A stretch of 64,000 bases of DNA. It comes from Candidatus Latescibacterota bacterium. Lineage in GTDB: Bacteria; Latescibacterota; UBA2968. Made by a program: the position numbers and the translations under genes. Shown one piece after another: positions 9,464 through 38,878 of this stretch (within the stretch, counting starts at the first letter, position 1; each line of letters opens with the position of its first letter). The stretch spans positions 192,001 through 256,000 of the forward strand of contig OZ242010.1 of the NCBI GenBank assembly GCA_965204745.1, given 5' to 3'. The notes beneath the pieces are model-generated. The model ran no database searches and was not told where the DNA came from. It saw only the letters and a program-made list of their open reading frames with translations.

Positions 9464-9554
9464 GAGGGAACTTTACTGATTTGATTGCTGACCGCTTGGG
9501 GTGCTGGGCGGCCCTCTCCCGTCTTCCCTCTAACGTCTCACTTGCGGAAGGGCT

Positions 9555-9598
9555 GGGCGGGGACTGACCACTGACCACTGACCACTGACCACTGACAA
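9555..9598 (+). repeat. GGGCGGGGA leader + (CTGACCA)x4 CTGACAA heptamer array
   Basis: Direct reading; relatives at 6345, 34091, 38835, 52165 (reverse) and 889 (reverse). Confidence 0.9.
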
Positions 9599-9612
9599 CT
9601 GAGGAACATCCC

Positions 9613-13446: not shown

Positions 13447-14393
13447 AAGTGGACATCCGAGACAGAGAAGCCTTGATCGCGGTTTCGCCTGCGGCCCTAT
13501 CGGCTTATGCTCGCGGTGTGGGTTGGATTAAGGGTGAGCCTTATGGCGACCATTCCGATGTGTATGATGCCGAGGGGTTGCCAGAAATCATTTTGCCGCG
13601 CACCCAATGCCTCGGCGACTACGCCCATGTCGTATCGCAACTCATCGAGATTTTTGCGCGTGTCGCCGAGGTGGATGAACTCGCGCTATACCGCGACTTG
13701 GTTACGGCGGATTACGATGTGATTCGGGTGCGTGCCGGCGGCAATGAAGGTGCAAAGGGCGATGTGTCCATAGACGCGGGAATCGACCTGATGTGCGGCG
13801 CACGCGATATGCTCGTAGCCACGGCCTGCTCGCTGGAGAAGCCACGTCCGCTCTATCGCACAAATACAATCAAAAAAGCCAGAGACGATTTGAGCCGCGT
13901 GCGCTTGGGGCAGACCGAACAAGGCAGTTTTGTCGTCACTTTGTTGATCCCTTGGACATCGCACTTTAAGCCTATTGAAAGGCGGATAACGAGACGCCTG
14001 TCAGATGCCTTGTCAGCTATCCAAAAAGCGACCAAAAGAACAAATGGCGGAGATGTAGAGGCGTTTTTCAATACCGTGTCTGATGGCGTAAGTGCCAATC
14101 TGTGCGAAGCACTCGTGAAACTCATTGAACCGTTCCCAACATTGGATATCAGCGTGGTTTGGGCACGCACGCGGCCGATGAAAACCGGGCGAGAGACCAT
14201 TCGTTTCGCCAAGGACGACGCGCCAATTTTGCGCGCGGTAGCACGGTCATTCCGACGAGAAACCGATTGGGAAACGTTGCCTCGCCACTTGCAGGATGCC
14301 GTTGACGCCAAGTTGATGGAAGAAGCGCGTGGGGAAAACAGCGCAACACTTCCTCTGAGAGGTCTCCTGCGTGAGACTGGAGAAGCACCGTAG
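13443..14393 (+). CDS. Hypothetical protein coupled to the DUF4365 gene
   Basis: ATGA overlap with the upstream gene; RLGQTEQGSFVVTL and GVSANLCEAL motifs. Confidence 0.7.
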   Translation: MKVDIRDREALIAVSPAALSAYARGVGWIKGEPYGDHSDVYDAEGLPEIILPRTQCLGDYAHVVSQLIEIFARVAEVDELALYRDLVTADYDVIRVRAGGNEGAKGDVSIDAGIDLMCGARDMLVATACSLEKPRPLYRTNTIKKARDDLSRVRLGQTEQGSFVVTLLIPWTSHFKPIERRITRRLSDALSAIQKATKRTNGGDVEAFFNTVSDGVSANLCEALVKLIEPFPTLDISVVWARTRPMKTGRETIRFAKDDAPILRAVARSFRRETDWETLPRHLQDAVDAKLMEEARGENSATLPLRGLLRETGEAP

Positions 14394-14408
14394 CAATGGA
14401 GTTCTTTC

Positions 14409-15248
14409 ATGCGTGTATATCTCGATCGGTTGCGATATATTCTCGACCACGGCATCAAAAAAAATGATCGCACAGGCGTGGGGACGATCTCGTGTTTTGG
14501 TCTGCAAGCGCGTTACGCGATGGCCGATGGATTTCCGGCCGTGACGACCAAGCGATTGGTTTGGAGATCCCTGCTCTCGGAACTGCTGTGGTTTGTGTCT
14601 GGGTCGGACAACATCCATGATTTGAAAGCCCATTTGAAAAGCAACCGGCTGTGGGATGGCAATTACGCGGACTATTTGAATCGCTTGGGACTGGATGCAA
14701 ACGACGGTGGCATGGGGCGCATTTACGGGGTGCAATGGCGGTGCTGGCAAGGGGCCAATGGCGAGGTGGTGGATCAACTTCAAGAGGCGATAGATTTGAT
14801 TAGACACAATCCCGAGTCCCGGCGCATTCTGGTCAATGCGTGGAATGCGGCTGAAGTAAGTCCGCAAGACGTGGCCCTGCCCCCGTGTCACAACTTGTTT
14901 CAATTTTACGTGGCAGAGGGCAAATTGTCTTTGCAGATGTATCAGCGGTCCTGCGACATGTTTTTGGGCGTGCCCCTCAACATCGCGTCCTATTCCACAT
15001 TGTTGCACATGGTCGCCAAAATCACAGGGCTTGTGCCGCACGAATTTATTCACGTCCTCGGCGACGCCCACATTTACCTCAACCACCTCGACGCGGTCAA
15101 AGCGCAACTGTCTCGCACGCCGTATCCCCTGCCCCAGTTGCAGATTGCAGACCGCGGTCAAACCGAGATCGATGATTTTGTGATGGACGATTTTGAACTG
15201 ATCGATTACCAGCACCATCCGACCATCCGAGCGAAAATGGCGGTGTGA
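14409..15248 (+). CDS. thyA: Thymidylate synthase
   Basis: DRTGVGT, ALPPCH, YQRSCDMFLGVPLN and GDAHIYLNH motifs. Confidence 0.96.
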   Translation: MRVYLDRLRYILDHGIKKNDRTGVGTISCFGLQARYAMADGFPAVTTKRLVWRSLLSELLWFVSGSDNIHDLKAHLKSNRLWDGNYADYLNRLGLDANDGGMGRIYGVQWRCWQGANGEVVDQLQEAIDLIRHNPESRRILVNAWNAAEVSPQDVALPPCHNLFQFYVAEGKLSLQMYQRSCDMFLGVPLNIASYSTLLHMVAKITGLVPHEFIHVLGDAHIYLNHLDAVKAQLSRTPYPLPQLQIADRGQTEIDDFVMDDFELIDYQHHPTIRAKMAV

Positions 15249-15288
15249 AGGCGGGGAGAGGGAAGAGGCAAGATACTCTCTTAAAAGG

Positions 15289-16296
15289 TCAAGGGGTTTT
15301 CGGGGTGATTCGATAGAATTTTTCGCCCTCAAAATCTTGGTCATGGCGCAACATGCCCCAGATCGAATGGAGCAACTTTCGCATCACCGCAACGATAGCC
15401 TGCAAAGGTTTCTTGCCGCGGGCGATGAGTTGGTCATAGAAGGCTTTGACATGGCCTTCGTGTCTGATGGCCACCCAGGCAGGCATATAGAGGGCATGGC
15501 GGAGGTACTTATTCCCGGTTTTCGAGATGCGTCTTTGTGGATTGGCGGTTCCGGATTGTTTGGGTTTGGGATCCAGGCCTGCATGTGCGACCCACTGGGG
15601 CGGTTGCATCTCCTCTGGCAAAAGGGTCAACTCGGCCAAGAGCCGCAAGGCACTCGTTTGCGCGATGCCAGGCGTCGAGCAGAGGCGTTGGTAGGCACGC
15701 TTGAGGGGCTCATCGTGCAAAACGAGATCGAGGGCTTGGCTTTCCAAGTATGCAATCCGGCGTTTGAAGTGTCGAATATTCACCTGAATATCGCGTGCGA
15801 TGAGACGTGTGCTGCGGATGTGGTAGCTCTGCGCGTGGTTGCGGCTCTGTTCGCGGATGATCTCCTGCTTGAGTTGGTCAATGCGTCTGGTGAGGGCTTG
15901 CAGTTGAAGCCGTTGCTCGCTCGGCGCTTGCCAAGGCACAAAAGGCATGCGCTCGGCATAGTCGAGGATCAACAACGCATCCTTCGCATCCGTCTTCGCC
16001 CGTTGCATGCAGGCTTGGGCGTACTTGCTCATCGCTTTGGGATTGACGACCATGACCTTTGTGTGGCGATGCCGATGCAAGGCCAAGGCCACCCCCAAAC
16101 TGTAAAGCCCGGTCGCTTCGAGGCACACAGAGACCATGTGCCCGCCCTTCGTGAGCCACTTCAGCAACCGCTTATGCGCTTGGGGATCATTGGCAAAGGT
16201 CGCTTGCATGACAGCTTGTCCGGGTCTGGACAGGGCAACGGACAACGTGCGGGCACTGACATCAATGCCGGCAAAAGCGGGGTGAGATTTCGACAT
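15289..16296 (-). CDS. IS110 DEDD recombinase (335 aa)
   Basis: GIDVS, CLEATG and KTDAKDA (DEDD); C-terminal AGLDP...QSG...ISKTGN...AVMRKL. Confidence 0.95.
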   Translation of the reverse strand: MSKSHPAFAGIDVSARTLSVALSRPGQAVMQATFANDPQAHKRLLKWLTKGGHMVSVCLEATGLYSLGVALALHRHRHTKVMVVNPKAMSKYAQACMQRAKTDAKDALLILDYAERMPFVPWQAPSEQRLQLQALTRRIDQLKQEIIREQSRNHAQSYHIRSTRLIARDIQVNIRHFKRRIAYLESQALDLVLHDEPLKRAYQRLCSTPGIAQTSALRLLAELTLLPEEMQPPQWVAHAGLDPKPKQSGTANPQRRISKTGNKYLRHALYMPAWVAIRHEGHVKAFYDQLIARGKKPLQAIVAVMRKLLHSIWGMLRHDQDFEGEKFYRITPKTP

Positions 16297-16309
16297 GGGG
16301 GCCTCCTGT

Positions 16310-16550
16310 GATGAGGGGGTTGTAAGGGATCTGGTGCGCGCTCGGGGTCGCGTCCCGACCATTGACGCCAAGTCTACCGGTCTTGTATATGCAGCCTCAA
16401 GGGGCTTAGATACTCTTCGGCATAGACCCGGCGGTCGGGGGGCCTATCTTACCTACAAGGTCATCGCCTTCAAGAGGGGCCGGCCTTCCCCGAGCCGGGC
16501 ATCAAGATGGCTTATCTCGATACGAGGGCGCAACTCCTAATTAACCCTTA
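16310..16550 (-). ncRNA. Predicted bridge RNA of IS110 copy 1 (limits approximate)
   Basis: Two stem-closed internal loops. Target guides at 16447-16454 and 16472-16479 match the flanks. Donor guides at 16381-16388 and 16408-16416 match the element ends. Confidence 0.85.
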
Positions 16551-16672
16551 CTTCCAAGATACAAGAGGGGAGACGCGAGAGGGGAGAGGGAAGTTTAGTC
16601 ACGAGCGGTACAACTGGCGACAGATTGAAGGAGATGACGAAATGAAAAAGAGCGATTTCGAGCAAACCAGCG

Positions 16673-16771
16673 AACTTCGATCCAAAATTTGACCTCGACA
16701 GCGACGGAGAGGTCGGCTTTTCCGATTTCATCATTTTTGTCGATTCTTTTGGCAAACCCGTCAATGGATAA
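16673..16771 (+). pseudogene. Orphan dockerin/EF-hand-like C-terminal fragment
   Basis: Reads NFDPKFDLDSDGEVGFSDFIIFVDSFGKPVNG* with no proper start; resembles 43350-43550. Confidence 0.6.
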
Positions 16772-16809
16772 TCCTTTCGCTTTATCGTCATCCCTTTGAG
16801 TGCGAAACC

Positions 16810-17379
16810 GTGGAACGCTTTCTCATTTTGGTCAAACACGCGATGCCTCGCATTGACGAGACGAAATCCGCCGCAGACTGGCACCTGTCTGAGCGCGGCC
16901 GGGCGAGTTGTCTCGATCTCGCCGAGGCGTTGCGTCCCTATAACCCCGACCTTTTTGTCACGAGCGACGAACCCAAAGCGCGAGAAACAGGTCAACGCGC
17001 CGCCGAACACCTTCGGCTTCCCTGTTCACCCGTCCCCAATCTGCATGAACACGACCGCAAAGGCGTTCCCTTTATGCGCCGAGAAATCTGGCATGCCACG
17101 CTAAAAACCTTCTTTGCTCGCCCCGACGACCTGATCTTGGGCAATGAAACGGCAAATCAAGCGCGGCTTCGGTTCAGCCGAGCGGTTGAAGCAGTTGTGA
17201 AAACGCACCCCCACAAAACCATCGCCATCGCCACACACGGCACGGTCATCTCTTTATTCGTCGCGCAAAAAACGCGAACCAATGGCTTCGATCTCTGGCA
17301 ACGCTTGGGCTTGCCCTCGTATGTGGTGCTCGACCTGCCGGACTACAACTTGCACGCCCTTGCAGAACGGATAGGATAA
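16810..17379 (+). CDS. Histidine phosphatase (phosphoglycerate mutase) family protein
   Basis: LVKHA, SDEPKARET, NLHEH and ATHG motifs. Confidence 0.85.
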   Translation: MERFLILVKHAMPRIDETKSAADWHLSERGRASCLDLAEALRPYNPDLFVTSDEPKARETGQRAAEHLRLPCSPVPNLHEHDRKGVPFMRREIWHATLKTFFARPDDLILGNETANQARLRFSRAVEAVVKTHPHKTIAIATHGTVISLFVAQKTRTNGFDLWQRLGLPSYVVLDLPDYNLHALAERIG

Positions 17380-17507
17380 CGCGCCGCATTCTCAACGGAA
17401 AAAAATCTCCTTCACTTGCTTTGCCTGTGCAACTCGACAAACAGGCCGGTATTTTGTAAAAAGCAAGCACATCGTAGCCATTTTGATATGAAAGGGGCCC
17501 CACGCCA

Positions 17508-17795
17508 ATGATCTACGCAATCATACCTTTTCAGCGGAGTAAAAAAGAAAAACTTCGCAACAAAGTAGAGACACTCGGGATTCCCGTCTATACTGACGAA
17601 GCCCCCACCGCTTACTTTGTGTCGTACAACGGGACGACGCGCGAATTGGCCGAAGCTATCGGGTTTAGCAATGGCGAGTCGGGTACGGGTATCGTCATAC
17701 CGGTCTCGAATTACTACGGTTATGCAGCCAAAGACCTCTGGGAGTGGATCAACATCCACGAACATGACTATGTAGTAGGATGGCCGCGGATATGA
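17508..17795 (+). CDS. Small hypothetical protein
   Basis: 95-aa ORF; apparently coupled to the next gene. Confidence 0.55.
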   Translation: MIYAIIPFQRSKKEKLRNKVETLGIPVYTDEAPTAYFVSYNGTTRELAEAIGFSNGESGTGIVIPVSNYYGYAAKDLWEWINIHEHDYVVGWPRI

Positions 17796-18160
17796 CACCT
17801 GACCAAAACAACAATGCAGAGAACGCTGAAAACCGGGAACTCAGCCCTCCGCCACGTCCAGAATCGCCATCCCATTCTCCTGGAGACACGAGTCAGTGGA
17901 TCATGCGGAGTCTCAACATGATTAACGACACACTCGACGAGATTAGAAAAGACATCAGCGATCTAAAAGACCGAGTCGCTCGCGTGGAAGAAAAGGTCGA
18001 ATCGATCTCACGGGTTGAAAGTGGATTGCAGAGCCTGGAAAAAAGAGTGCGGAAGCTTGAAAATCGCTTTTGGGTCGCCGTCGGAATTTTTGTGGTTATT
18101 ATCTTTTTGGCGCGCATATTTCTCCCCGATTTTGACATCGCGATCACACCAAAGCCATAA
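17780..18160 (+). CDS. Coiled-coil protein with C-terminal membrane anchor
   Basis: Heptad coiled coil followed by FWVAVGIFVVIIFLA. Confidence 0.6.
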   Translation: MAADMTPDQNNNAENAENRELSPPPRPESPSHSPGDTSQWIMRSLNMINDTLDEIRKDISDLKDRVARVEEKVESISRVESGLQSLEKRVRKLENRFWVAVGIFVVIIFLARIFLPDFDIAITPKP

Positions 18161-18331
18161 GGCAAGCGTCTATCGTAGGCAACGACTTGACGCGGGGAAA
18201 GGGAACGGAAAATCAGTGAGATAAATCAGCCCGAACCCGTAGGGATTATTCAGTAATCACTCAAACAGTCAGGAGTAGCGTGTCGAAAATAAATTGTCAA
18301 CATTTGTTCATAAAAGCCGAATGTTATTACT

Positions 18332-18925
18332 ATGGCTTATGTAAATACGCGCAAAGCAGTTGCTTTGCTTGGCGTTCATCCGAATACGTTGCGTAAGTGG
18401 GCGAATGACGGTCGGATTGAACATATCCGCAGTCCAGGTGGACGGAGACTTTACAATGTCGATGCGTTCTTGCGGGAAGAAGTTGGCGTTGCCGTTGTGT
18501 GCTATGCACGGGTTAGCAGTGATGCCCAAAAAGACGACTTGCGAGGGCAAGTTGCACTCTTGCGATCCCGTTATCCCGGAGCAGAGATCGTCAAAGACAT
18601 TGGCGGGGGCCTCAACTAAAAGCGGAAAGGACTTGTCGCCCTACTGGAACGCTTACACAGCGGAGAGAAGTTGCGAATTGTGGTTGCCCACCAAGACCGC
18701 CTTGCACGGTTCGGCTTTGAACTTATTGAGTGGTTGGCAAAGCAAAACGGGGGCGAGATCGTGGTTCTCGACGAGTCAAGTTGCAGTCCAGAACAAGAAC
18801 TCACGCAGGATATTTTGTCCATTCTCCATACGTTCTCTTGTCGGCTGTCCGGACTCCGCAAGTATCGTGACAAAATCGAGAAAGATAAGAGTCTCTCTGA
18901 CAAGCGAGCAGAAGGCGTTGGTTAA
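18332..18925 (+). pseudogene. tnpA: IS607 serine recombinase with in-frame nonsense codon
   Basis: MerR-like HTH, YARVSS, DIGGGLN*KRKGL (TAA at 18617-18619), then DRLARFG in the same frame. Confidence 0.88.
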
Positions 18926-20008
18926 GTTATGGATGGATGGTAGCCGTTGGTGGTATAACGAGGCGGTGTCTTTGTATCGTTTGGGATATGATTTGTCTGA
19001 GTATGAGATGCGTGCTATTGTTCGTGCGGTGAGTCCTGAGTGGTTTGCGGATGTTCCGAGCAAGATATTGTCTGGTGCGATAACGGATGCTCATAGGGCT
19101 AACCGTGCGGTAAAGAAGAAGCGTAAGCAGTTGAAGGATAGAGGTATAAAGCGTAAGGTTGAGTTGGATTTTCGTAATCGTAAGGATCCTATTCAGTCGT
19201 TTTCGTTGTGTAATGTGGCATGGAACAAGGCTTTGACGACGATCTATCCTCGCAGTCTTGGCGATATTCGTTTGTCCGAGCCTGTCTCTGTTGTACCGAG
19301 GGATGGTCGTTTGGTCAGTCACAATGGCAGGCCTATGTGACCGTGCCCTATTCAAGTCCACAACACGTAGCCGAGAACCAAGGGCGTGTTGTGGCACTTG
19401 ATCCAGGTATTCGCAGTTTTTTGACGTTCTTTTTTCAAACAGATTGTGGCAAGATTGGCGACGGTGACTTTGGTCGTATTCAGCGTTTGTGTGTTCATCT
19501 TGACGGGTTGATCGGTCGCATGACAAAGGCCATCGGCTTTCGCCAGGTGCGTTTGAAGCGTGCCTGCCATCGCATGCGGTGGCGCATCCGAGACTTGATC
19601 GATGAACGCCACAAACAGACTGCTCGCTGGCTGGTGGACAACTACGATGTGATTCTTCTGCCCACATTTGAGACCAGCGAGATGGTTGTGCGTGGCAAGC
19701 GTTGCCTTCGTCGTAAGTCTGTTCGCAGTCTGTTGACCTTTGCTCATTACCGCTTCAAGCAGTTCCTCAAGCACAAGGCGTTTGAAACTGGCAAGTTGGT
19801 CTTGGATGTGAACGAGGCATACACGTCCAAAACAGTCAGTTGGACAAGCGAGATTGTAAAGAACTTGGGCGGAGCGAAAGGCATTCGTAGCAGGAAAGAT
19901 GGTCAAGCGATGGATCGAGATATCAACGGCGCACGGGGTATTTTTCTCCGTGCTTTGGGGGATACACCCAAGTTGCGGAACTGTTTGGATGCAACTTGCA
20001 CTGGTTGA
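18867..20008 (+). pseudogene. tnpB: Frameshifted TnpB RNA-guided nuclease
   Basis: N-terminus KSRKIRV...SRWWYN in one frame; shift near 19330; RuvC motifs ALDPGIR and DRDINGARGI in another frame. Confidence 0.85.
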
Positions 20009-20068
20009 ACACTTATTGATTTGCTTAGGTTGTTAATAAGGGTCAACAGAAAGGTATCAGATAGGCAC

Positions 20069-20272
20069 ATGGACGACCGAATCTCCATCGATCCCAAAGT
20101 GTATCACGGTCAAGCATGCATTCGAGGAACGCGCCTTCCCGTGCATCAAATCCTCCGAATGCTCGCTAATGGGGATACTGTTGAAGACCTCCTTCGAGAA
20201 TATCCCTCTGTGACGTGGGAAGATATCCGCGCTTGCTTTGACTATGCAGCGTCATTGGCTGAAACCGCTTGA
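20069..20272 (+). CDS. DUF433 antitoxin
   Basis: RISIDPKVYHGQACIRGTRLPV...YPSVTWEDIRACFDYA. Confidence 0.9.
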   Translation: MDDRISIDPKVYHGQACIRGTRLPVHQILRMLANGDTVEDLLREYPSVTWEDIRACFDYAASLAETA

Positions 20273-20290
20273 TAGCCCCTTGGATGAGGT

Positions 20291-20653
20291 ATGAAAATCT
20301 TCGTCGACGAGCATATTCCCCTCATGACGGTCCAAGCCCTGCACCTGAGGGGGCATGATGTCCGTGATATTCGCGGTACCCCAAATGAAGGAATGCAAGA
20401 CGACGCATTGTGGGAAATGGCACAACGGGAAGCGCGTCTGTTGATTACGACTGACAAGGGCTTTATGCACTACCGCACAGTGTCGCACTATGGGGTGCTC
20501 ATCATCCTGCTACGACAACCGAACCGCCACGAGATTCACCAACGCATTATGCAAGCACTAGGACAGTTTGACGACGCGGAATGGCCCGATTTGCTGGTGG
20601 TCATGCGGGATATTGCCCAGCGTACATGGCACAGTACTACGCGCAGAAGTTGA
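20291..20653 (+). CDS. DUF5615 PIN-like toxin
   Basis: MKIFVDEHIP...GHDV...LLITTDKGF motifs. Confidence 0.88.
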   Translation: MKIFVDEHIPLMTVQALHLRGHDVRDIRGTPNEGMQDDALWEMAQREARLLITTDKGFMHYRTVSHYGVLIILLRQPNRHEIHQRIMQALGQFDDAEWPDLLVVMRDIAQRTWHSTTRRS

Positions 20654-20712
20654 AACGAATAGAGCGCGGGGAATGGCAACTGCACCACCGCCGCTTAAAA
20701 AAGGAAAACACT

Positions 20713-21516
20713 ATGCAACTGATAGAAATAGGGAGAAAGGACTGGGTCTTTCGAGATCCGACGATTACCGATGAGATCCAGCAAAAACTCGATCGAGCAT
20801 TGGATACCTGGGAAGCGGGTCAGGTTGAACGGGCAAAAAAAATGCTTCGCGCTATCATCGAGGAGTGTCCCAATCACATCGATGCGTGCCATCATTTATC
20901 GCTTATCTACGAGGAGCAAGGTAGAACATTGGAGGCTTACGTTTTCTGCCAAGCTGCCGTCAGCATCGGGTTGCAAGCGATTCCCGAGAAATTCAAATGG
21001 GAGCAATCAACAGTCACATGGGGTCTGTTGGATAATCGTCCATTCCTGAGAGCGTACCATAATCTTGGTTTGTGGCATTTCCATAACGATAGGTACGACG
21101 ATGCAATTGAGATTTTTGAGAGACTCCTATTTGTTAATCCAAACGACAATCAGGGAGTCAGATATCTGTTGCCGATCTGTTGGTTTGAAAAAGACGAATT
21201 ATCGGCAATTCTCGATCTCTGCCACCAATACTCGGATGATATTGGTCCCGCAATTCTCTACTCTGAGGCATTGGCACTTGCACTCCTTGGGCGAGGCGAG
21301 GAGGCGCGAGCGGCGCTGAAGAATTGTGTTCTTAAACTGCCGTTGGTCGGCAAGGAGCTTTTGAAGAAGCGACATCCCAAGCCGAAATTCCGAATAGAGG
21401 GTTATATTACTCATGGAGACCATGCTCAAGCCTATGAATATTGGAGAGATTTCGGCAAATACTGGTCAGATTCGGAATCCGCGATGAAACTTTTGAGACG
21501 GGCAATGAAACGATGA
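20713..21516 (+). CDS. TPR-containing protein
   Basis: WGLLDNRPFLRA and NPNDNQGVRYLL motifs; helical repeats; AAGGA RBS. Confidence 0.75.
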   Translation: MQLIEIGRKDWVFRDPTITDEIQQKLDRALDTWEAGQVERAKKMLRAIIEECPNHIDACHHLSLIYEEQGRTLEAYVFCQAAVSIGLQAIPEKFKWEQSTVTWGLLDNRPFLRAYHNLGLWHFHNDRYDDAIEIFERLLFVNPNDNQGVRYLLPICWFEKDELSAILDLCHQYSDDIGPAILYSEALALALLGRGEEARAALKNCVLKLPLVGKELLKKRHPKPKFRIEGYITHGDHAQAYEYWRDFGKYWSDSESAMKLLRRAMKR

Positions 21517-21594
21517 ATCGCACGGGTGAAAGCATCCTCGCAAAACCATCGCCATGTGCGGCACGGTCATCGCTTTCTTCGTCGCGCCAAAACC

Positions 21595-21626
21595 AAAACC
21601 CGACCACCTGAGTGGCCGGGTTTTTT
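21595..21626 (+). terminator. Rho-independent terminator
   Basis: AAAACCCGACCAC-loop-GTGGCCGGGTTTTTT. Confidence 0.65.
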
Positions 21627-21653
21627 GGATGATTCTCGATCTCTCTCTCGTGA

Positions 21654-21860
21654 ATACCAAATTGAATTGCTGTTGTCCTACTATACTGGAACACGTCAAC
21701 GAGTCACTGCTTCGGACAGGCACGGGGGCCTGTCTCTACGGGTGATGGCGGCGGGAGATGCAAAGGACATAGCGGAGTGGGAACGATGAAGCGGCGGCAG
21801 GGCGGTGTGGGGTAATCCGTGCAATCCCCTAATCCGCGAAAATCCGCGATTCAGACACGG
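21654..21860. repeat. Composite repeat cluster (MITE end + GTAG-type REP hairpin + AATCCG-rich element)
   Basis: 21654-21740 is repeated at 26134-26218; 21758-21860 is repeated at about 30420-30520 and 51992-52040, and inverted near 24560 and 26000. Confidence 0.8.
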
Positions 21861-21949
21861 CGGGGTGGGGAAGGGACGGGAACGCACGGGCGGGGGGTAA
21901 GGACGAAGCAGTGGATCGACTTGGCGGTGAAAAAATCGGGAGATGAGCC

Positions 21950-22744
21950 ATGGTCGCTGCGGCACACAAACACCTCAAAACGGTCGTCATGGTCGCCACG
22001 CGCTCGTTGGACGACAAGGGGTGGGTCATCGTTGGGGGATATGGGTTGCGCTTGTTGCGCGTGGTGTTCCTGCTTTCCCTGTGGCGCGTCTTGTTGCCCG
22101 AAACCGGTGAAGTCTCGGGCCTGACGCGCGATGCCGTGCTGACTTATACCCTCATTGCCGAAGTCTTTGCCGGGCAAATCTCCGTTCGCACGGGCCTCGA
22201 TGGCGCGCTTTGGCACGGGGATATCGCCAATCGCTTCTTGCGCCCGGTGGGCATCTACGGGCAATTCATCGCAGAGATGGTCGGCGCGGGCCTGCCCAAT
22301 CTGGTCATGTTCTCATTGCCCCTCTTTTGCCTGGCCCCGCTGTTGGGCGTCGATCCATTTCCGGAACATGCGATAGCCGGCGGTTTGTTTTTCGTCAGCC
22401 TGATTTTGGGCATTGCCATCGGCGCGGCATTTGACTTCATTTTTGCGAGCCTCATGGTTTTGTTAGAGCAAAGCGTTTACGCGCTGATGCAAATTCGAGA
22501 TGCGGTCAGCGTCTTGTTGTCCGGCGCGATCATTCCCCTCGCGCTGATGCCCTGGGGGGTTGGCGATATCCTCACTTACTTGCCCTTTGCGTCGCTGGCC
22601 TCTGCGCCCCTGCGGATTTACACGGGCACGGGCGATCCCGCGTTCCTCATCGGCCTTCAGGCCGTTTGGGCGGTCATCCTGTGGCCCGTTGCCCACCATT
22701 TCTGGAACGCCAATCGAGAACGCTTGGTCTCGCACGGAGGATAG
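21950..22744 (+). CDS. ABC-2 family permease (DUF990 type)
   Basis: GDIANRFLRP, LLSGAIIPL and terminal VSHGG; paralog of 3401-4216. Confidence 0.85.
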   Translation: MVAAAHKHLKTVVMVATRSLDDKGWVIVGGYGLRLLRVVFLLSLWRVLLPETGEVSGLTRDAVLTYTLIAEVFAGQISVRTGLDGALWHGDIANRFLRPVGIYGQFIAEMVGAGLPNLVMFSLPLFCLAPLLGVDPFPEHAIAGGLFFVSLILGIAIGAAFDFIFASLMVLLEQSVYALMQIRDAVSVLLSGAIIPLALMPWGVGDILTYLPFASLASAPLRIYTGTGDPAFLIGLQAVWAVILWPVAHHFWNANRERLVSHGG

Positions 22745-22748
22745 CGCG

Positions 22749-23579
22749 GTGAACACCTTGACCCAACTGATCGCCCGTTGGCGCGTGCAGGCGTATTTGG
22801 ACTTCATGTGGATGACGCGGGATTTTCGGTTCTTTCTGATCAACATCGTCTCGGACATCATTCTCAACCTCGCGGGGGTGATGGCGGTCTTTCTCTTGAC
22901 CGAACGCTTTGAGGGCATCGGCGCGTGGTCGCGCGATCAAATCGTCTTCATGCTCGGGTACGCGGCCTTGGTGCGCGGCCTGCTGGACGTGGGATTCAGC
23001 TACAACGTCCTCCACATCAGCCGCCGCATTGGCCGCGGGCAGATCGACCACCTCCTCGTGCAACCGCAACCCCTGTGGATGGGTCTTCTGACCGAGGGAT
23101 TTATGCCGTTCTCCGGATCGTGGTCTTTGCTCACCGGCATCGGCATTATGGCTTGGGCCATCCACCAACTCGGCATGGCGTCGACCACGTACTGGTTCGC
23201 GTTCGCCTGCAATCTCGCGGCCTCCTGCGCGATAGTGCTCGCATTCTCTTTTGCCTGGGGCAGTTTGGCATTTTGGGCGCCGGTCGCCGCCGAAGAAATC
23301 AGCAGCCGCGCGGTCAATTTTATGTACCAACTCAAATCGTTTCCCCTCGATGGTTTAAGCGCGTTTGTGCTCGCCAACATGCTCGCGGTCTTGCCAGTCG
23401 GGTTTGTCGCGTGGTATCCCTGCCGGCAATTGCTCGGCATCGCCCCGCCGAACCTGTGGCACACCCCGCTCGTCGCCATCGCCTTCTCGCTCATCGCGTG
23501 GGTCGCGTTCAAAAAAGGCATGCAACACTATGAACAAACCGGATCACAACGCTACCTCGGCTGGGGCCATCGCAGTTAA
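22749..23579 (+). CDS. ABC-2 family permease (DUF990 type)
   Basis: GQIDHLLVQP and HYEQTGS; paralog of 4219-5022. Confidence 0.85.
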   Translation: MNTLTQLIARWRVQAYLDFMWMTRDFRFFLINIVSDIILNLAGVMAVFLLTERFEGIGAWSRDQIVFMLGYAALVRGLLDVGFSYNVLHISRRIGRGQIDHLLVQPQPLWMGLLTEGFMPFSGSWSLLTGIGIMAWAIHQLGMASTTYWFAFACNLAASCAIVLAFSFAWGSLAFWAPVAAEEISSRAVNFMYQLKSFPLDGLSAFVLANMLAVLPVGFVAWYPCRQLLGIAPPNLWHTPLVAIAFSLIAWVAFKKGMQHYEQTGSQRYLGWGHRS

Positions 23580-24549
23580 ACTCCGCAAGGTCGATAAAAT
23601 TTTCTACCAACGCCAGCGGTCCGAAAAAATCCAAGACGTGTTCAAAAACCTGTTTCGCCCGAACATCCGGAAAATTCGCGCCTTGCAACAGGTCGATCTC
23701 AGCATTCGCCGAGGCGAAATCGTGGCGTATGCCGGCCCCAATGGCGCGGGCAAATCCACCACTGTCAAGTTGCTCTCCAGCGTTTTGGCCCCCACAGCCG
23801 GCAGCGTGGAATGCTTGGGCATGGATCCCATGAAAGACCGCGTGCAGTACGTCAAGCGCATCGGCGTGGTGTTTGGGCAGCGCACTGAATTGTGGTGGGA
23901 CCAACCCGTGGTCGCCAGCTTTGAGTGGAAGCGCGTGGTGTGGGAGATTCCCCGCAACCGGTATGACGCCATGCTCGGCTTTGTCAAAGACCTGCTCGGC
24001 ATCGACGAATTTTTCAACGCCCTGGCGCGGCAACTCAGCCTGGGACAAAAAATGCGCGCAGACCTCGCCCTGATGCTCATGCACGAACCGGAAATCCTCT
24101 TTTTGGACGAACCCACCATCGGCGTTGACGTGCTCGCCAAACGCAACATCCTCAACTTCATCAAAAACCTCAACCGGGAAAAAGGCGTCACAGTCCTGCT
24201 CACCAGCCACGACATGGACGAACTCGAGCAACTCGCCGGGCGCATCGTCATGATCGACAAGGGCCGCATCGCGTATGACGGGGATTTTCGACACCTGCGC
24301 CGGCAATTTGGCGACCACCGCCACCTCACCATTGAAACCGCGAGCGCGGACCCGCCAAAACTATCGGGCGTTCGATTCATCCGCAGCGAAGGCAACCGCC
24401 ACCACTTCACGTTCGACGCCGCGCAAACGCCCATTCCCACCCTGCTCGACCAAGTGCAAACTCCGATCCGAGATATCGAAACCCACCGCGCACCCATTGA
24501 CGACGTGATCGCAGATATGTACGAACACTGGGATGCAAGGGATCAGTAG
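23530..24549 (+). CDS. ABC transporter ATP-binding protein
   Basis: GPNGAGKST, LSLGQ and LFLDEPT motifs. Confidence 0.92.
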   Translation: MNKPDHNATSAGAIAVKLRKVDKIFYQRQRSEKIQDVFKNLFRPNIRKIRALQQVDLSIRRGEIVAYAGPNGAGKSTTVKLLSSVLAPTAGSVECLGMDPMKDRVQYVKRIGVVFGQRTELWWDQPVVASFEWKRVVWEIPRNRYDAMLGFVKDLLGIDEFFNALARQLSLGQKMRADLALMLMHEPEILFLDEPTIGVDVLAKRNILNFIKNLNREKGVTVLLTSHDMDELEQLAGRIVMIDKGRIAYDGDFRHLRRQFGDHRHLTIETASADPPKLSGVRFIRSEGNRHHFTFDAAQTPIPTLLDQVQTPIRDIETHRAPIDDVIADMYEHWDARDQ

Positions 24550-24692
24550 TCAGTCCATTGTCTGAATCGCGGATTAAACGGATTGCGCGGATTGCACGGA
24601 TTACCGCGCCGCCGCCCGTGCGTGCCCATCCCGTCCTACCGCAAGCCCTATCCCCAAGTAAGAGGCAAGAAGTAAGATACTCTCTTAAAAGG

Positions 24693-25700
24693 TCAAGGGG
24701 TTTTCGGGGTGATTCGATAGAATTTCTCGCCCTCAAAATCTTGGTCATGCCGCAACATGCCCCAGATCGCATGGAGCAATTTTCGCATCACCGCAACGAT
24801 AGCCTGCAAAGGTTTCTTGCCCCTGGCGATGAGTTTGTCATAAAAGGCTTTGACATGGACTTCGTGCCTGCAGGCCACCCAAGCAGGCATGTAGAGGGCA
24901 TGGCGGAGATATTTATTTCCGGTTTTCGAGATGCGTCTTTGTGGATTGGCAGTCCCGGATTGTTTGGGTTTGGGATCCAGGCCTGCATGAGCGACCCATT
25001 GGGGCGGTTCCATCCCGTCTGGCAAGGAGGCCAGCTCGGCCAAGAGCCGCAAGGCACTCGTTTGGGCGATACCGGGCACCGAGCAGAGGTGCTGGTAGGC
25101 ACGCTTTTGGGGCTCGTCCTGCAAAACGAGTTTGAGGGCTTGGTCTTCCAAGTAGGCAATGCGGCGTTTGAGGTGTCGAATATTCACCTGAATATCGCGT
25201 GTGATGAGGCGGGCACGCTTGACGGGGTAGTCCTGCGCGTGGTGCCGGTTCTGTTCGCGGCTGACCTCCTGTTTGAGTTGGTCAATGCGTCTGGTCAGCG
25301 TTTGCAGTTGCAGGACGTGCTCGCTCGGCACTTGCCAAGGCACAAAGGGCATGCGCTCGGCATCATCGAGGATCAACAACGCATCCTTCGCATCTGTCTT
25401 TGCCCGTTGCATGCAGGCTTGAGCGTACTTGCTCATCGCTTTGGGATTGACGACCATGACCTGCGTGCAGCGATGCTGATGCAAGGCCAAGGCCACCCCC
25501 AAGCTATAACGCCCGGTCGCTTCGAGACAGACCGAGACCATGCGCCCGCCCTTGGTGAGCCACTTCAACAGGTGCTTGTGCGCCCGAGGCGCGTTGTCAA
25601 AGGTGGCTTGCATGACCCCTTGTCCGGGTCTGGACAGGGCAACGGACAACGTGTGGGCACTGACATCAATGCCGGCAAAAGCGGGTTGAGTGTTCGACAT
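24693..25700 (-). CDS. IS110 DEDD recombinase (335 aa), diverged paralog of copy 1
   Basis: Same DEDD and QSG motifs as copy 1; intact ORF. Confidence 0.95.
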   Translation of the reverse strand: MSNTQPAFAGIDVSAHTLSVALSRPGQGVMQATFDNAPRAHKHLLKWLTKGGRMVSVCLEATGRYSLGVALALHQHRCTQVMVVNPKAMSKYAQACMQRAKTDAKDALLILDDAERMPFVPWQVPSEHVLQLQTLTRRIDQLKQEVSREQNRHHAQDYPVKRARLITRDIQVNIRHLKRRIAYLEDQALKLVLQDEPQKRAYQHLCSVPGIAQTSALRLLAELASLPDGMEPPQWVAHAGLDPKPKQSGTANPQRRISKTGNKYLRHALYMPAWVACRHEVHVKAFYDKLIARGKKPLQAIVAVMRKLLHAIWGMLRHDQDFEGEKFYRITPKTP

Positions 25701-25713
25701 CGGGGCCTCCTGT

Positions 25714-25955
25714 GATGAGGGGTTTGTAAGGGATCTGGTGTGCGCTCGGGTTCGCGTCCCGACTGTTTGCCCAGTCTACCGGTCTTGTATATGCAGCCTC
25801 GATGGACTTAGATACTCTTCGGTATCAACTCGGCGGTCGGGGGGCCTATCTTACTTACAAGGTCATAGCCTTCAAGAGGCACCGGCCTTCCCCGAGCAGG
25901 GCATCAAGATGGCGTGTCTCGATGCGAGGGCGCAACACCTAAATTAACCCTTTCT
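25714..25955 (-). ncRNA. Predicted bridge RNA of IS110 copy 2 (limits approximate)
   Basis: Target guides at 25849-25856 and 25874-25881; donor guides at 25783-25790 and 25810-25818. Confidence 0.85.
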
Positions 25956-26132
25956 GACAACATACAAGAGGTAAGATCCACCCACCGCCCCGCCGTGTCT
26001 GAATCGCGGATTTGCGCGGATTAGGAGATTGCGCGGATTACCCCTCTCCGCCCGTGCGTGCCCGTCCGCACTACCTCTCCACCCGTGCGTGCCCAGCCCA
26101 TCTCCGCCCTGCCATGTGCGTTAGCCCCATCT

Positions 26133-26283
26133 TATACCAAATTGAATTGCTGTTGTCCTATATACTGGAACACTTCAACTATCACTGCTTCGGACAGGCA
26201 CGGGGGCCTGTCCCTACGATACGCCTGTGCGCGCTTTTGTCGTGTATTAGAAAAATTAGGACAACGAAAAATCACATTGGTAT
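26133..26283. repeat. Short MITE-like element with ATACCAA/TTGGTAT ends and an internal REP-like hairpin
   Basis: Terminal inverted repeats; internal GGACAGGCACGGGGGCCTGTCCCTAC. Confidence 0.6.
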
Positions 26284-26567
26284 TATATCCTGCGGTTGGG
26301 GATTGCGCGGTTACTCCCCACCATCCTACCGCCGCTTCATCGTTCTCCTGGCTATGTCCTTCGCATCCCCTGCCACAAGCAGTGGTCAGCGGCTTTGGGA
26401 ACATCGCCCGCCATTGCCCTCTGTACGCACAAGCCCTCGCAACAGGCTCCTACCTTCAGGGGCCGTTGCGAGGGCTTGTGTCGTTATCGGCTCTTTCTTT
26501 GCACCAACCGGTTAGGGAAGCGCGTCAATCCTGTAATCGTCGCCCACCCTACTCCCTCTAAATCCGT

Positions 26568-26750
26568 TCAAATTGAAGTTGCGACCAATGCAAAACCTGC
26601 CGCTACCAAGACGATTTCGATTTTGACATGGGCGACGCCCTCGTCGACCATATCCAACTTTTTCGCCGCGCCCAACGACAGGTCAAGGATGCGCCAGCCG
26701 ACGAATGGCCCGCGGTCATTGACCTTCACCACAACGGATTTGCCATCTTC
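26568..26750 (-). pseudogene. RlpA (DPBB) C-terminal fragment
   Basis: GKSVVVKVNDRGPF...RILDLSLGAAKKL; the N-terminal half is absent. Confidence 0.7.
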
Positions 26751-26775
26751 GCGCCTCTTCGCGGCGGCCGCGGTC

Positions 26776-27882
26776 TCAAGGTTGCAAGTCGTCGAGCCAG
26801 CGGGCGACAAGTTGGCTGCCTTTTTGAATTTCGGCAATGGCTTCTCGGTCGGGTTGTTCGCGTTCGTCGATCAGCCCTTTTCGCCGGAAGCGGTTGCGAA
26901 CATAACCCCCGCAAAGATGCGCGCCGATAGCGCCGGGATTTTTGAGCAGATCGCAGAGGGCATCGACATACCATTTGCCATCCGCGAGGTAGTACTCCCC
27001 ATCGAGATACTTTCCGCTGTCATCCGCGATGGTTGCCCGCGGGCGAGAGCCATCTGCCCACAAAACCGCCTTGCCCGTGGTCGCATACCAGTCGCGCAGG
27101 TGTTCGACCGGGTTTGAGAAGTCCTGAAAGCTGAGGACATCAACGTAGGGATCGGCGGCTTGGACAATCTCTATCGGGAGGGGTGCATTGGCTTCGTAGC
27201 GGTCGCCGAGGATCAAGTGGTGGGGATCGTAGCGGCGAATCGCGTCGTGCGTGACTCGGTAGTAGCGCGACGCCATCTCGAACAGGTCGGATCGCCCGGC
27301 TTTTGACGAGAGTCGCTCGGGGTCGAACATGGGGCCGCGCCAGGCATTGGGCGGCCGGACGTGAACCCAGGTCGGGCAGTCCGAGTAAAAATAGCCGATC
27401 AAATTCGGTTCATTTCTCAAGCGCGAGCATTGGGATCGCGCGACATAATCGCACCAGTCCTCAAAATCCTCGCTGAAGATATCGGGATTGGCGTGCCATT
27501 GGTTCCACTGATGGGTTTCGATGAACGGGAGCAGGTGGCAGTAGGGCAACGATAGGGCGCGGTATTCCTCCAGCGAGAAGCTCGGGGTGTGCGCGTGGTG
27601 CTTGATGCTCACGTCCTGCACCCAGCCGACGGTGTTAAACCCCCACGATTTCAGGTTGGGCGACACGGATTCGCGGATCCACTTGTGGCTATCATTGCCG
27701 TATTTTTGTTCCCAGCGCGGCAGGTTTTCCGGGTAATGCAATGGGGAAGAATCGATGTGGTTTAGCCCGACCGAGAAAAATGGCTCCCGATCTGGCGTGA
27801 GGAGAATCCAGTGCCCGCCGCGTTTGGCGAGGGTGAAGAACCCTTTGGACGATGTCTGCGTTGTTTGGATCGCGTTGGACAT
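26776..27882 (-). CDS. Agarase-like glycoside hydrolase (TIM barrel)
   Basis: PFFSVGLNH, LKSWGFNTVG, LIGYF and IRRYDPHHLILGDR resemble GH50-like catalytic domains. Confidence 0.65.
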   Translation of the reverse strand: MSNAIQTTQTSSKGFFTLAKRGGHWILLTPDREPFFSVGLNHIDSSPLHYPENLPRWEQKYGNDSHKWIRESVSPNLKSWGFNTVGWVQDVSIKHHAHTPSFSLEEYRALSLPYCHLLPFIETHQWNQWHANPDIFSEDFEDWCDYVARSQCSRLRNEPNLIGYFYSDCPTWVHVRPPNAWRGPMFDPERLSSKAGRSDLFEMASRYYRVTHDAIRRYDPHHLILGDRYEANAPLPIEIVQAADPYVDVLSFQDFSNPVEHLRDWYATTGKAVLWADGSRPRATIADDSGKYLDGEYYLADGKWYVDALCDLLKNPGAIGAHLCGGYVRNRFRRKGLIDEREQPDREAIAEIQKGSQLVARWLDDLQP

Positions 27883-31475: not shown

Positions 31476-31580
31476 TCTCACCTCTCGCCTCTCACCTCTC
31501 ACCTCTCGCTTCTCACCTCTCACCTCTCGCTTCTCACCTCTCACCTCTCGCCTCTCACCTCTCACCTCTCGCCTCTCACT
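31476..31580 (-). repeat. Degenerate heptamer array (GTGAGAG/GCGAGAG/GTGAGAA on the minus strand)
   Basis: About 15 units; overlaps the phoR stop codon. Confidence 0.95.
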
Positions 31581-34090: not shown

Positions 34091-34132
34091 CTGACAACTG
34101 ACAACTGACAACTGACAACTGACAACTGACAA
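34091..34132 (+). repeat. (CTGACAA)x6 heptamer array upstream of phoB
   Basis: Direct reading. Confidence 0.93.
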
Positions 34133-38672: not shown

Positions 38673-38878
38673 TCTTGCCTCTTGCCTCTTGCCTCTTGCC
38701 TTTCGCCTCTTGCCTCTCACCTCTTGCCTTTCGCCTCTTGCCTTTCGCCTTTCGCTTCTTGCCTCTTGCCTTTTGCCTCTTGCCTCTTGCCTCTTGCCTC
38801 TTGCCTCTCACCTCTTACTTGTGGATGGGTTGTTGGGCGGGGACTGACTACTGACAACTGACTACTGACAACTGACAA
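38673..38878. repeat. Degenerate (CCTCTTG/CCTTTCG) heptamer array followed by a leader + CTGACTA/CTGACAA array
   Basis: About 21 units at 38673-38820; second family at 38835-38878. Confidence 0.95.

Follow-up and report, generated by a model that had tools for sequence, protein, structure and literature searches.

IS621-like insertion sequences with putative bridge RNAs and diverse target guides in the heptamer repeats of a Candidatus Latescibacterota genome

Background

Insertion sequences of the IS110 family, as exemplified by IS621 of E. coli (PDB 8wt6), include elements in which the recombinase is directed to its site by a bridge RNA, and natural covariation between guides and targets is described in PMC11208160 as the route by which bridge RNAs were discovered. 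The catalytic residues of the IS621 recombinase are D11, E60, D102, D105 and S241-G242 (PMC11208158). In its RNA, a variable target-binding loop precedes the donor-binding loop, with a handshake dinucleotide 3' of the right-target guide (PMC11208158 and PMC11208160); the latter also describes 5' sides of the loops reading the bottom strand, 3' sides reading the top strand and a core that falls within all four pairings.

Other members of the family show variations on this theme. ISPpu10 and ISPpu9 of Pseudomonas putida are described in the preprint 10.64898/2026.03.19.712850 as multi-copy elements inserted in repeated intergenic sequence, with G-U and G-T wobbles tolerated at defined guide positions and a junction promoter whose -35 is supplied by the right end and whose -10 lies in the left end; they target REP sequences and reportedly also need a stem-loop in the target. 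Half-match insertion is described in the preprint 10.64898/2026.08.31.748434. Elements of the IS1111 group, to which the seekRNA systems relate, share the recombinase family and the RNA-guided principle; according to PMC11208160 their left end is short and their right end long, and it is this right end that carries the guide RNA in the group. Published work already covers the junction promoter, the tolerance of wobbles, insertion at half-matched sites and the covariation seen among natural IS110 elements; because the mechanism is known, the locus described here is a good natural example and not a new system, and no new mechanism is added.

A first-pass annotation of a window of 64,000 nucleotides from a Candidatus Latescibacterota bacterium (contig OZ242010.1, positions 192,001 to 256,000) had proposed, from the sequence alone, a naturally reprogrammed pair of intact bridge recombinases in the interval 15266-25973. 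Coordinates below are those of the window, and the features lie on the minus strand. The interval does hold both elements, but about 8 kb of unrelated genes separate copy 1 from copy 2. The reading preferred here, with a probability of about 0.9, is that the two are copies of a single IS110-group insertion sequence with the mode of action of IS621.

Results and discussion

Organisation of the two elements

The ends of the elements were set from a comparison of 53 genomic copies. Copy 1 extends over 15273..16563 (1291 bp without the cores) and carries the guide variant V1 of the main subfamily, while copy 2 extends over 24677..25966 (1290 bp) and carries the variant V3 of the 89% subfamily. The elements alone are 88.8% identical; when about 40 nt of flank per side are aligned along with them, the mean column identity is 92%. 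The left ends measure 267-270 nt in both copies (267 nt, 16297-16563, in copy 1) and the right end of copy 1 only 16 nt (15273-15288), an arrangement of long left end and short right end that is shared with IS621, the RNA of which is 177 nt in length. Membership of the IS1111 group was rejected because the guides lie in a non-coding RNA region that precedes the gene, and the right end measures 16 nt.

Each element is bordered on both sides by a CT core, as is IS621. In copy 1, the core at 16564-16565 on the LE side is followed by the left target CCCCT at 16566-16570 (plus-strand flank AGGGG), and the core at 15271-15272 on the RE side adjoins the right target TGCCT at 15266-15270 (plus-strand flank AGGCA). 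The corresponding features of copy 2 are the core at 25967-25968 with the left target TACCT at 25969-25973 (plus-strand AGGTA) and the core at 24675-24676 with the right target TACTT at 24670-24674 (plus-strand AAGTA).

The recombinase

The recombinase genes at 15289..16296 (copy 1) and 24693..25700 (copy 2) are intact and encode 335 aa each. Both proteins match the Pfam pair DEDD_Tnp_IS110 and Transposase_20, as does IS621, over the curated cut-offs (87 and 72 bits), with E-values of 1.2e-24 (PF01548) and 4.8e-20 (PF02371) for copy 1. Among proteins of solved structure, the best-scoring relative is that of ISCro4 (PDB 9t56; E 7.6e-40 for copy 1 and 3.4e-36 for copy 2), a likeness judged from the protein alone, followed by IS621 8wt6 (E 5.8e-36 for copy 1); the matches to the two range overall from E 1e-33 to 1e-40, and the recombinase is only a distant relative of that of IS621 (E 6e-36). 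The catalytic D, E, D and D and the Ser-Gly pair are identical in the alignments of copy 2 with 8wt6 and of both copies with 9t56. The earlier description of intact bridge recombinases stands as regards the reading frames and the catalytic residues, while the word "bridge" derives from homology and covariation.

Fold of the left end

A consensus fold was computed with RNAalifold from 13 sequences of 10 genomes and consists of two internal-loop stem-loops and a closing helix. Pairing is possible in 91.1% of cells, as compared to 83.2% after shuffling and 25-51% in slid controls, and compensatory changes occur at 13 of the 31 pairs, a result equalled by none of 500 shuffles; the two-stem-loop fold is supported because of this covariation. 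Helix 4, in the donor loop, has compensatory changes at eight of its 13 pairs. The 5' side of loop 1 is the least conserved segment, with 0.73 bits per column against 1.46-1.53 in loop 2 and 1.88 in the stems of loop 1, and the first loop is the variable one, as in IS621. The published consensus has a further stem-loop on the 5' side of the two loops; here a hairpin in the first 70 nt appears in single-sequence folds, but columns 1-71 are unpaired in the 13-sequence consensus, which does not recover that stem-loop. A search with Rfam cmscan (E up to 1, positions 14000-27500) returned no family match for the region, the only hit being a chance snoRNA match elsewhere.

Target-binding loop and match to the insertion site

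The target-binding loop of copy 1, predicted from the consensus fold (alignment A2) as an outer stem, an internal loop and an inner hairpin, lies at 16441..16485. It contains the LTG-like segment CCCCUCUU at 16472-16479 (plus-strand letters AAGAGGGG) and the RTG-like segment AGGUAAGA at 16447-16454 (plus-strand letters TCTTACCT), the last A of which starts the putative handshake dinucleotide. In copy 2, the consensus fold and the guide-flank match place the loop at 25843..25887, with the LTG-like segment UGCCUCUU at 25874-25881 (plus-strand AAGAGGCA) and the RTG-like segment AAGUAAGA at 25849-25856 (plus-strand TCTTACTT). The three guide differences between the copies sit within sequence that is conserved otherwise.

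On the plus strand, the flanks of copy 1 restore the 12-mer target AGGCA + AG + AGGGG given in the first-pass annotation, and those of copy 2 restore AAGTA + AG + AGGTA. The right target of copy 1 pairs with its guide with one rU-dG wobble; in copy 2, the left target pairs with one rG-dT wobble and the right target perfectly. The guide strings and flanks reported earlier agreed letter for letter in both copies, as did the single wobble-compatible mismatch in each. When the flank of copy 2 is read with its own V3 guides, eight Watson-Crick pairs and one wobble are formed, as compared to six pairs, one wobble and two mismatches with V1 guides. As in IS621, the 5' side of the loop reads the bottom strand and the 3' side the top strand, with the core in each. 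The right-target guide is longer than that of IS621, extending 5 nt past the core as against positions 10-11, and the matching left-target guide is shorter, with 5 nt, the core and one further base.

Donor-binding loop and candidate junction promoter

The donor-binding loop, which contains helix 4, is placed at 16367..16432 in copy 1, where LDG AGAGUAUCU at 16408-16416 (plus-strand AGATACTCT) and RDG AUACAAGA at 16381-16388 (plus-strand TCTTGTAT) match the RE-LE junction. The loop of copy 2 (25769..25834) carries the same guides at 25810-25818 and 25783-25790, so that the earlier statement of identical donor guides matching the junction was correct, as was the minus-strand order of target loop, donor loop and recombinase. 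Donor guides and ends are identical across all subfamilies in the genome; the V4 copy narrows the common junction letters to TCT.

Two hexamers were noted by eye at the element ends. In the right end, TTGACC (15287..15292) overlaps the stop codon of the recombinase gene; TATCTT (16556-16561) belongs to the left end, and relatives retain the two hexamers by the same inspection. Across the junction they would be separated by 18 nt in copy 1 and by 17 nt in both the same-genus relatives and the 96% subfamily. They are candidate -35 and -10 elements of a circle-junction promoter, comparable to that described in PMC11208160 and similar in arrangement to that of ISPpu10 and ISPpu9. A promoter scan of the linear locus found nothing within the left end.

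Taken together, the Pfam domains, catalytic residues, ends, CT core, two loops and strand order bear out the IS621-type layout recognised in the first-pass annotation, and support the assignment of both elements, as judged from sequence, to the IS110 group of the IS110 family as IS621-like bridge-RNA insertion sequences. By homology, the element would excise as a circle, the RE-LE junction of which would set the -35-like TTGACC 17-18 nt upstream of the -10-like TATCTT, and the resulting promoter would drive transcription of the left end into an RNA of about 200 nt. Covariation shows the fold of this RNA into the two internal-loop stem-loops, the second of which, by its complementarity, reads the joined ends of the element itself. 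A DEDD/Ser recombinase tetramer would then exchange strands at the CT core, as homology to IS621 suggests. The targets in this genome are the junctions between heptamer tandem-repeat units, each variant sitting where its own guides match, and the family has grown to 53 members and diverged into four guide variants, two of which include copies 1 and 2.

Copies and guide variants across the genome

The genome holds 53 near-full copies with four guide variants, V1 to V4, a multiplicity that differs from IS621 and resembles ISPpu10 and ISPpu9. V1 accounts for 45 of the 52 parsable copies, V3 guides occur in two copies only and V4 in one. Every copy is inserted in arrays of heptamer tandem repeats (for example, at the junction CTCCCCT|CTTACCT), and the CT core is present on both sides in 52/52 of these copies and in 24/24 parsed loci of two related genomes. 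IS621 targets REP elements, and in contrast to the REP targets of ISPpu10 and ISPpu9, the repeats here are non-palindromic with no structural requirement evident.

The copies might be recently dead relics, in which case the covariation would reflect past activity with no present movement. The one empty site found, in a single contig (run X2) that omits 1293 bp between 15268 and 16562, is weak, with a shorter side of 25 nt, and is in keeping with this account. However, the full 335-aa reading frame with its catalytic residues is kept in 51 of the 53 copies, 11 copies, copy 1 among them, show 100% identity across the 1301-nt query, 37 reach an identity of 99% or more, and the patchy presence of the element (2 of the 20 further genomes from the genus carry it) fits a recent spread, making the relic account improbable.

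Guides and flanks fit perfectly in 23 of the 52 parsable copies and with a single wobble in another 20 (43/52 together). When guide sets were shuffled among the 52 copies, the 428 Watson-Crick pairs observed exceeded all of 20000 shuffles (mean 407.7, maximum 420); for 76 copies from three genomes, 581 pairs were observed against a mean of 470 and a maximum of 510 (0/20000). The three changed guide letters of the V4 copy all match its own flank. Beyond this genome, seven guide pairs in nine related genomes match their flanks, an eighth being not placeable on the left side, and at 10 loci in seven more distant genomes (52-64% aa identity, pairs counted by eye) the right-target guide forms 45 Watson-Crick pairs, three wobbles and two mismatches in 50 positions. 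The proposed checks by fold and by guide-flank covariation have thus turned out in favour of the earlier claim that guide changes follow the flank, and the term "naturally reprogrammed" holds beyond the pair, for the four variants and the guide pairs of related genomes.

Such matches could in principle be a by-product of composition, pyrimidine- or purine-rich words of the left end resembling the repeats while the protein alone picks the site. The targets are indeed low-complexity heptamers that look alike, and non-cognate guide sets still match 5-7 of the nine variable positions. Yet the guide changes follow flank changes in V1 to V4 and in the nine other genomes, which have unrelated target words, and the observed match is outside the range of the shuffles. 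Moreover, the segments face each other across an internal loop supported by covariation and read opposite strands across the core, exactly as in the model of PMC11208160. This explanation, which is also opposed by the site occupancy given below, is considered extremely improbable.

Cis and trans placement

It may also be that the guide RNA of another copy, acting in trans, directed the insertion of copy 2 and perhaps that of copy 1, or that guides changed after insertion, the match to the own flank being partly coincidental. Since donor guides and ends are common to all subfamilies, any bridge RNA could move any circle, and trans action is shown for IS621 (PMC11208160). The scarcity of V3 guides is likewise compatible with this account, as is the copy at genome position 602779, whose V3 guides face a V4-type site and form three mismatches with it. 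However, 602779 is a mosaic, the first 100 nt of which resemble the copy-2 subfamily, and therefore gene conversion of that stretch would also explain its V3 guides. Copy 2 fits V3 guides better than V1 guides, and six of the seven non-V1 copies match their own guides no worse than V1 guides. None of the seven is found at a canonical V1 site in spite of the predominance of V1, which argues for mainly cis coupling. This account of trans placement or later guide change is considered rather unlikely, though for any single copy the inserting guide may derive from another copy.

The fit is poorer in nine of the 52 copies. Apart from 602779, these comprise four V1 copies with two left-target mismatches, two copies with three right-target mismatches, one V1 copy with a wobble and a mismatch, and one V2 copy with a single mismatch. 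They might be explained by half-match insertion as described in 10.64898/2026.08.31.748434 or, for 602779, by its mosaic origin.

Site occupancy and guide diversification

Perfect V1 sites are occupied at 20 positions and empty at five (80% occupied), and single-wobble sites are occupied at 18 and empty at 70 (20% occupied), while none of the 149 sites with a non-wobble single mismatch is occupied (Fisher p 5e-9). The tolerance of wobbles is shared with ISPpu10 and ISPpu9. A tentative interpretation, which we would place somewhat short of even odds, is a radiation of target guides inside one genome over a microsatellite landscape: after about 80% of perfect sites for the main guides were filled, insertion may have spilled over to single-wobble sites only, and daughter subfamilies may then have been reprogrammed to other heptamer junctions, each copy being inserted mainly by its own RNA through cis coupling by the circle-junction promoter despite common donor ends. 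In that case, running out of target sites would be what selects for natural reprogramming, and the genome would supply near-identical recombinases with four orthogonal, field-tested guide sets.

The closed genome provides a clean natural data set for a system now in use for genome engineering: four guide variants account for 52 independent insertions, among them half-matched exceptions and one mosaic copy. It has a built-in specificity profile, in which perfect sites are preferred to single-wobble sites and those with any other single mismatch stay unused. It adds heptamer tandem repeats to the landing sites of bridge-RNA elements, in an uncultured lineage, and gives rise to a testable idea on guide diversification, namely site saturation. 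Recombinase-RNA pairs with the longer five-base right-target guide may be candidates for engineering.

Handshake dinucleotide

As in IS621, a putative handshake dinucleotide, apparently complementary to positions 6-7 of the left donor, is located 3' of the right-target guide. In 11 of the 13 aligned sequences, the dinucleotide next to the core-binding AG is AU, and 10 of these have a left donor with AT at its end; in the remaining one, L032, the donor ends in TT and the second position is unpaired, as it also is in G128. Covariation is seen in one lineage only, G097, which combines a left donor ending in AC with GU as the dinucleotide.

Anatomy and genomic setting of the two elements

The two insertion sequences which the first-pass annotation had interpreted as IS110 bridge recombinases of the IS621 type are real, and the interpretation is correct with respect to their anatomy, their catalytic residues, a covarying fold and guides that track the flanks. 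They belong to an already known kind of system. Copy 1 (15273-16563) and copy 2 (24677-25966) both lie on the minus strand and carry intact coding sequences for proteins of 335 aa (15289-16296 and 24693-25700, respectively), in which the Pfam domains DEDD_Tnp_IS110 and Transposase_20 score above the curated cut-offs. The best relatives of known structure are ISCro4 and IS621, with E-values of 7.6e-40 and 5.8e-36 for copy 1 and of 3.4e-36 and 4.8e-33 for copy 2. Alignment to IS621 revealed conservation of D, E, D, D and Ser-Gly at its positions D11, E60, D102, D105 and S241-G242, which are the catalytic residues of the IS621 recombinase (PMC11208158; the PDB chain is numbered two higher than the residue names of that paper). 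The elements alone are 88.8% identical, and the mean column identity is 92% in an alignment that includes about 40 nt of flank per side. In element orientation, both start with TGTAT after a CT and end with AGAGTAT before a CT, with 267-270 nt of non-coding sequence upstream of the gene (the left end) and 16 nt past the stop codon. On re-reading of the sequence, all the strings quoted for the guides and flanks were found in their places and the reconstituted 12-mer targets of both copies were as written. Wherever a feature that defines the IS110 group with an IS621-type bridge RNA could be clearly assessed, it is present; assignment to the IS1111 group was rejected, as these elements do not have the IS1111 layout.

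Both insertions are intergenic, copy 1 being 24 bp past the stop codon of a thymidylate synthase gene (14409-15248, plus strand) and copy 2 about 125 bp past an ABC-transporter ATPase gene (23365-24549, plus strand). A composite transposon made of the two copies was rejected, as each is flanked by matching target halves of its own and the intervening 8 kb contain ordinary genes as well as a TnpB-like gene. The latter is split over two overlapping plus-strand frames (18360-19340 and 19220-20008), the first encoding an IS605 OrfB helix-turn-helix and the second a Cas12f1-like TNB domain, and probably represents a further RNA-guided mobile element in frameshifted form. A complex intergenic repeat of ~144 bp that includes 9-bp sub-repeats is duplicated in tandem around copy 2 (24559-24635 and 25996-26102); the repeat spacings around it, 1436-1437 bp, equal 1293 + ~144.

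When contigs of four public DNA runs (X1, X2, X5 and X6) were aligned to the window, one contig of X2 was found to skip exactly 1293 bp at copy 1, with 5 shared letters, and is a weak hint of an empty site, because its shorter side spans only 25 nt. The thyA gene and the left flank of copy 1 are present in all 21 genomes of the genus; beyond the thyA stop codon the relatives have an unrelated intergenic sequence and show no synteny with the right flank, and no orthologous empty site was found among the 21 genomes.

Copies in the genome

The window belongs to a closed 5.48-Mb genome in which BLAST identified 53 near-full-length copies, together accounting for 1.26% of the genome, with the full ORF kept in 51 of them. 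Relative to copy 1, 37 copies are at least 99% identical (11 of them 100%), 8 are at 96%, 5 are at 88-89% and constitute the group of copy 2, and single copies are at 95.8%, 94.8% and 98.9%, the last being truncated. CT is present on both sides in all 52 copies with both junctions parsable. All 57 PF01548 matches in the genome come from this one element. By a crude and unreliable longest-ORF heuristic, no orientation bias relative to the neighbouring genes was seen (28 opposite, 24 same, on each side). Two copies of different subfamilies (96% and 99.9%) form a head-to-tail pair at 1121586-1124183 of the genome, their spacer consisting only of core, five bases and core, so that a right end lies next to a left end.

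Predicted fold of the left-end RNA

The first-pass annotation had proposed folding and aligning the left ends with homologues, and the resulting two-loop fold is backed by covariation. For the alignment (13 sequences, 10 genomes), which covered both copies and eleven relatives, RNAalifold predicted a closing helix and two stem-loops of one design, in which a large internal loop is followed by a 4-bp inner hairpin. Standard pairs occupy 91.1% of the cells compared with 83.2% on shuffling (0/500 as high), and only 25-51% when the partners are displaced by 1-3 columns; changes on both sides were found in 13 of the 31 pairs (0/500 shuffles). This support is uneven, as the outer helix of the donor loop holds 8 of the 13 compensatory pairs and the target loop has two short helices that hardly vary, so that covariation gives no evidence on them either way. 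Conservation is lowest on the 5' side of the first, target loop (0.73 bits per column), against 1.53 and 1.46 for the two sides of the second, donor loop and 1.88 for the first-loop stems. A variable first and a conserved second loop is also the pattern of bridge RNAs described in PMC11208160. No Rfam model matched the left end, and the 5' stem-loop of the published consensus appears only in single-sequence folds.

Just upstream of the recombinase start codon, a minus-strand hairpin pairs the GGAGG ribosome-binding site with CCUC (about 16303-16317 in copy 1 and 25707-25721 in copy 2). It is invariant in 33/33 sequences spanning three genomes of the genus and absent from distant orthologues, and may act as a translational brake on the recombinase.

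Guide variants and their flanks

Four variants of the target guide pair occur in this genome. V1 (5' guide CCCCUCUU, 3' guide AGGUAAGA) is carried by 45 copies, copy 1 among them; V2 (CGCCUCUU and AAGUAAGA) by 4; V3 (UGCCUCUU and again AAGUAAGA) by 2, copy 2 among them; and V4 (UCCCUCUC and AGGUGAGA) by a single copy. Scored over nine variable target positions in 52 copies, guides and flanks match perfectly in 23 and are off by one wobble in 20. The other nine are four V1 copies in which the right target is perfect and the left has two mismatches, two V1 copies in which the left target is perfect and the right has three mismatches, one V1 copy with a wobble and a mismatch, one V2 copy with a single mismatch, and the copy at genome position 602779 with V3 guides in a V4-type site. 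The copies matched in one arm resemble the half-match insertions reported for IS621 in a preprint (10.64898/2026.08.31.748434). The V4 copy differs from V1 in three guide letters, all fitting its own flank, two of which read one target base from both strands.

The first-pass annotation had staked its reading on covariation of guides and flanks in other copies, and such covariation is present: on shuffling of the guide sets the observed match was reached in 0/20000 trials, both among the 52 copies of this genome and among 76 copies of three genomes. Contigs of the four public runs carry further letter changes in both target-guide segments (window 16446-16454 and 16475-16479), pointing to more guide variants in related populations.

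Heptamer targets and site occupancy

The flanks are arrays of heptamer units such as CTTGCCT, CTTACCT, CTCCCCT and CTCGCCT, the CT core being the first two bases of a unit. Seven is the commonest tandem-repeat period in the genome (606 of 1762 TRF rows), and merging of the TRF arrays of period 7, 14 or 21 gave 722 arrays totalling ~37 kb, which are touched by 34 of the 53 copies. Period-7 arrays in the window lie at 749-866, 9512-9602, 16564-16590, 31476-31579, 34091-34132 and 38673-38878. Two heptamer families occur in the genome, the purine/pyrimidine-rich targets of the element and an ACTGAC type; no other IS110 family that might target the latter was present among the 57 PF01548 matches.

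The tolerance of V1 to natural mismatches was scanned by counting uninterrupted 12-mers, occupied and empty. Perfect sites are 20 occupied and 5 empty, and rU-dG wobble sites 17 and 65 (Fisher p 1e-7); all single-wobble sites together are 18 and 70, and all other single-mismatch sites 0 and 149 (wobble versus non-wobble, Fisher p 5e-9). Low mismatch tolerance has already been reported for IS621 (PMC11208160) and tolerance of G-U and G-T wobbles for ISPpu10 (preprint 10.64898/2026.03.19.712850).

Proposed mechanism and comparison with IS621

The anatomy, the conserved catalytic residues and the covariation-backed fold are directly supported here, and guide complementarity to two strands tracks the flanks within and between genomes. 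The steps of transposition are modelled on IS621 (PMC11208160, PMC11208158 and PMC13626964). The element would excise to a circle, whose joined ends would carry a candidate promoter with a spacing of 17-18 nt between TTGACC from the right end, where it overlaps the stop codon, and TATCTT from the left end; the left-end RNA would bridge target and donor; and a recombinase tetramer would exchange strands at CT.

Action in trans is possible because donor guides and ends are common to all the subfamilies. None of the seven minority-variant copies occupies a canonical V1 site, which suggests that the coupling of guides to insertions is mainly in cis. The exception at 602779-604074 has flanks that fit the V4 guides and not its own, and is a mosaic: the 100 nt at its start, extending into the target loop and covering the left-target guide, are like the copy-2 subfamily and the remainder is like the 96% subfamily. 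Insertion in trans and gene conversion of the target loop are therefore equally likely here.

The differences from IS621 are of degree. The right-target guide is longer here and the left-target guide shorter, reaching past the core by one base; heptamer repeats take the place of REP elements as targets; copy number is high; and one genome holds four guide variants. Natural concordance of guides and targets was itself the discovery route of bridge RNAs, with 5,511 target pairs and natural elements binned by guide (PMC11208160). Among the IS110 papers listed in the literature searched, none describes heptamer-repeat targeting or this lineage; the family may already be listed in the supplementary data of PMC11208160.

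Distribution and guides in relatives

The element is patchily distributed, with matches at E 1e-40 or better in 12 of the 168 genomes of the phylum sample, its own included, and, within the genus, in only 2 of the 20 other genomes. The most closely related loci, in two sets, are on MAG chromosomes titled Latescibacteria/Latescibacterota. In one of the two same-genus genomes the guides specify a pyrimidine-rich site that is not a heptamer; the other has one guide pair, for a different heptamer junction, with a left guide that matches seven flank bases and the core and a right guide shorter by one base.

Seven more distant genomes, at 52-64% aa identity, contributed ten loci in which the five right-target bases, counted by eye, comprise 45 Watson-Crick pairs, 3 wobbles and 2 mismatches out of 50. 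In the seven of these loci whose register could be assigned, the left guide, also counted by eye, agrees at 5-9 of 9 letters; the other three loci (L063, L073 and L078) belong to genome G041. In this G041 orthologue (54% identical), CT is missing from the left junction in two of the three copies, and the left guide has no CT before the stem.

Of the 13 sequences, 11 have the dinucleotide AU after the AG with which the right-target guide binds the core; in 10 of these the left donor ends in AT, the remaining one (locus L032) ending in TT. Genome G097 has GU in this place, with a left donor ending in AC. The pairing of dinucleotide and donor, with one covarying lineage only, fits the handshake guides described in PMC11208158.
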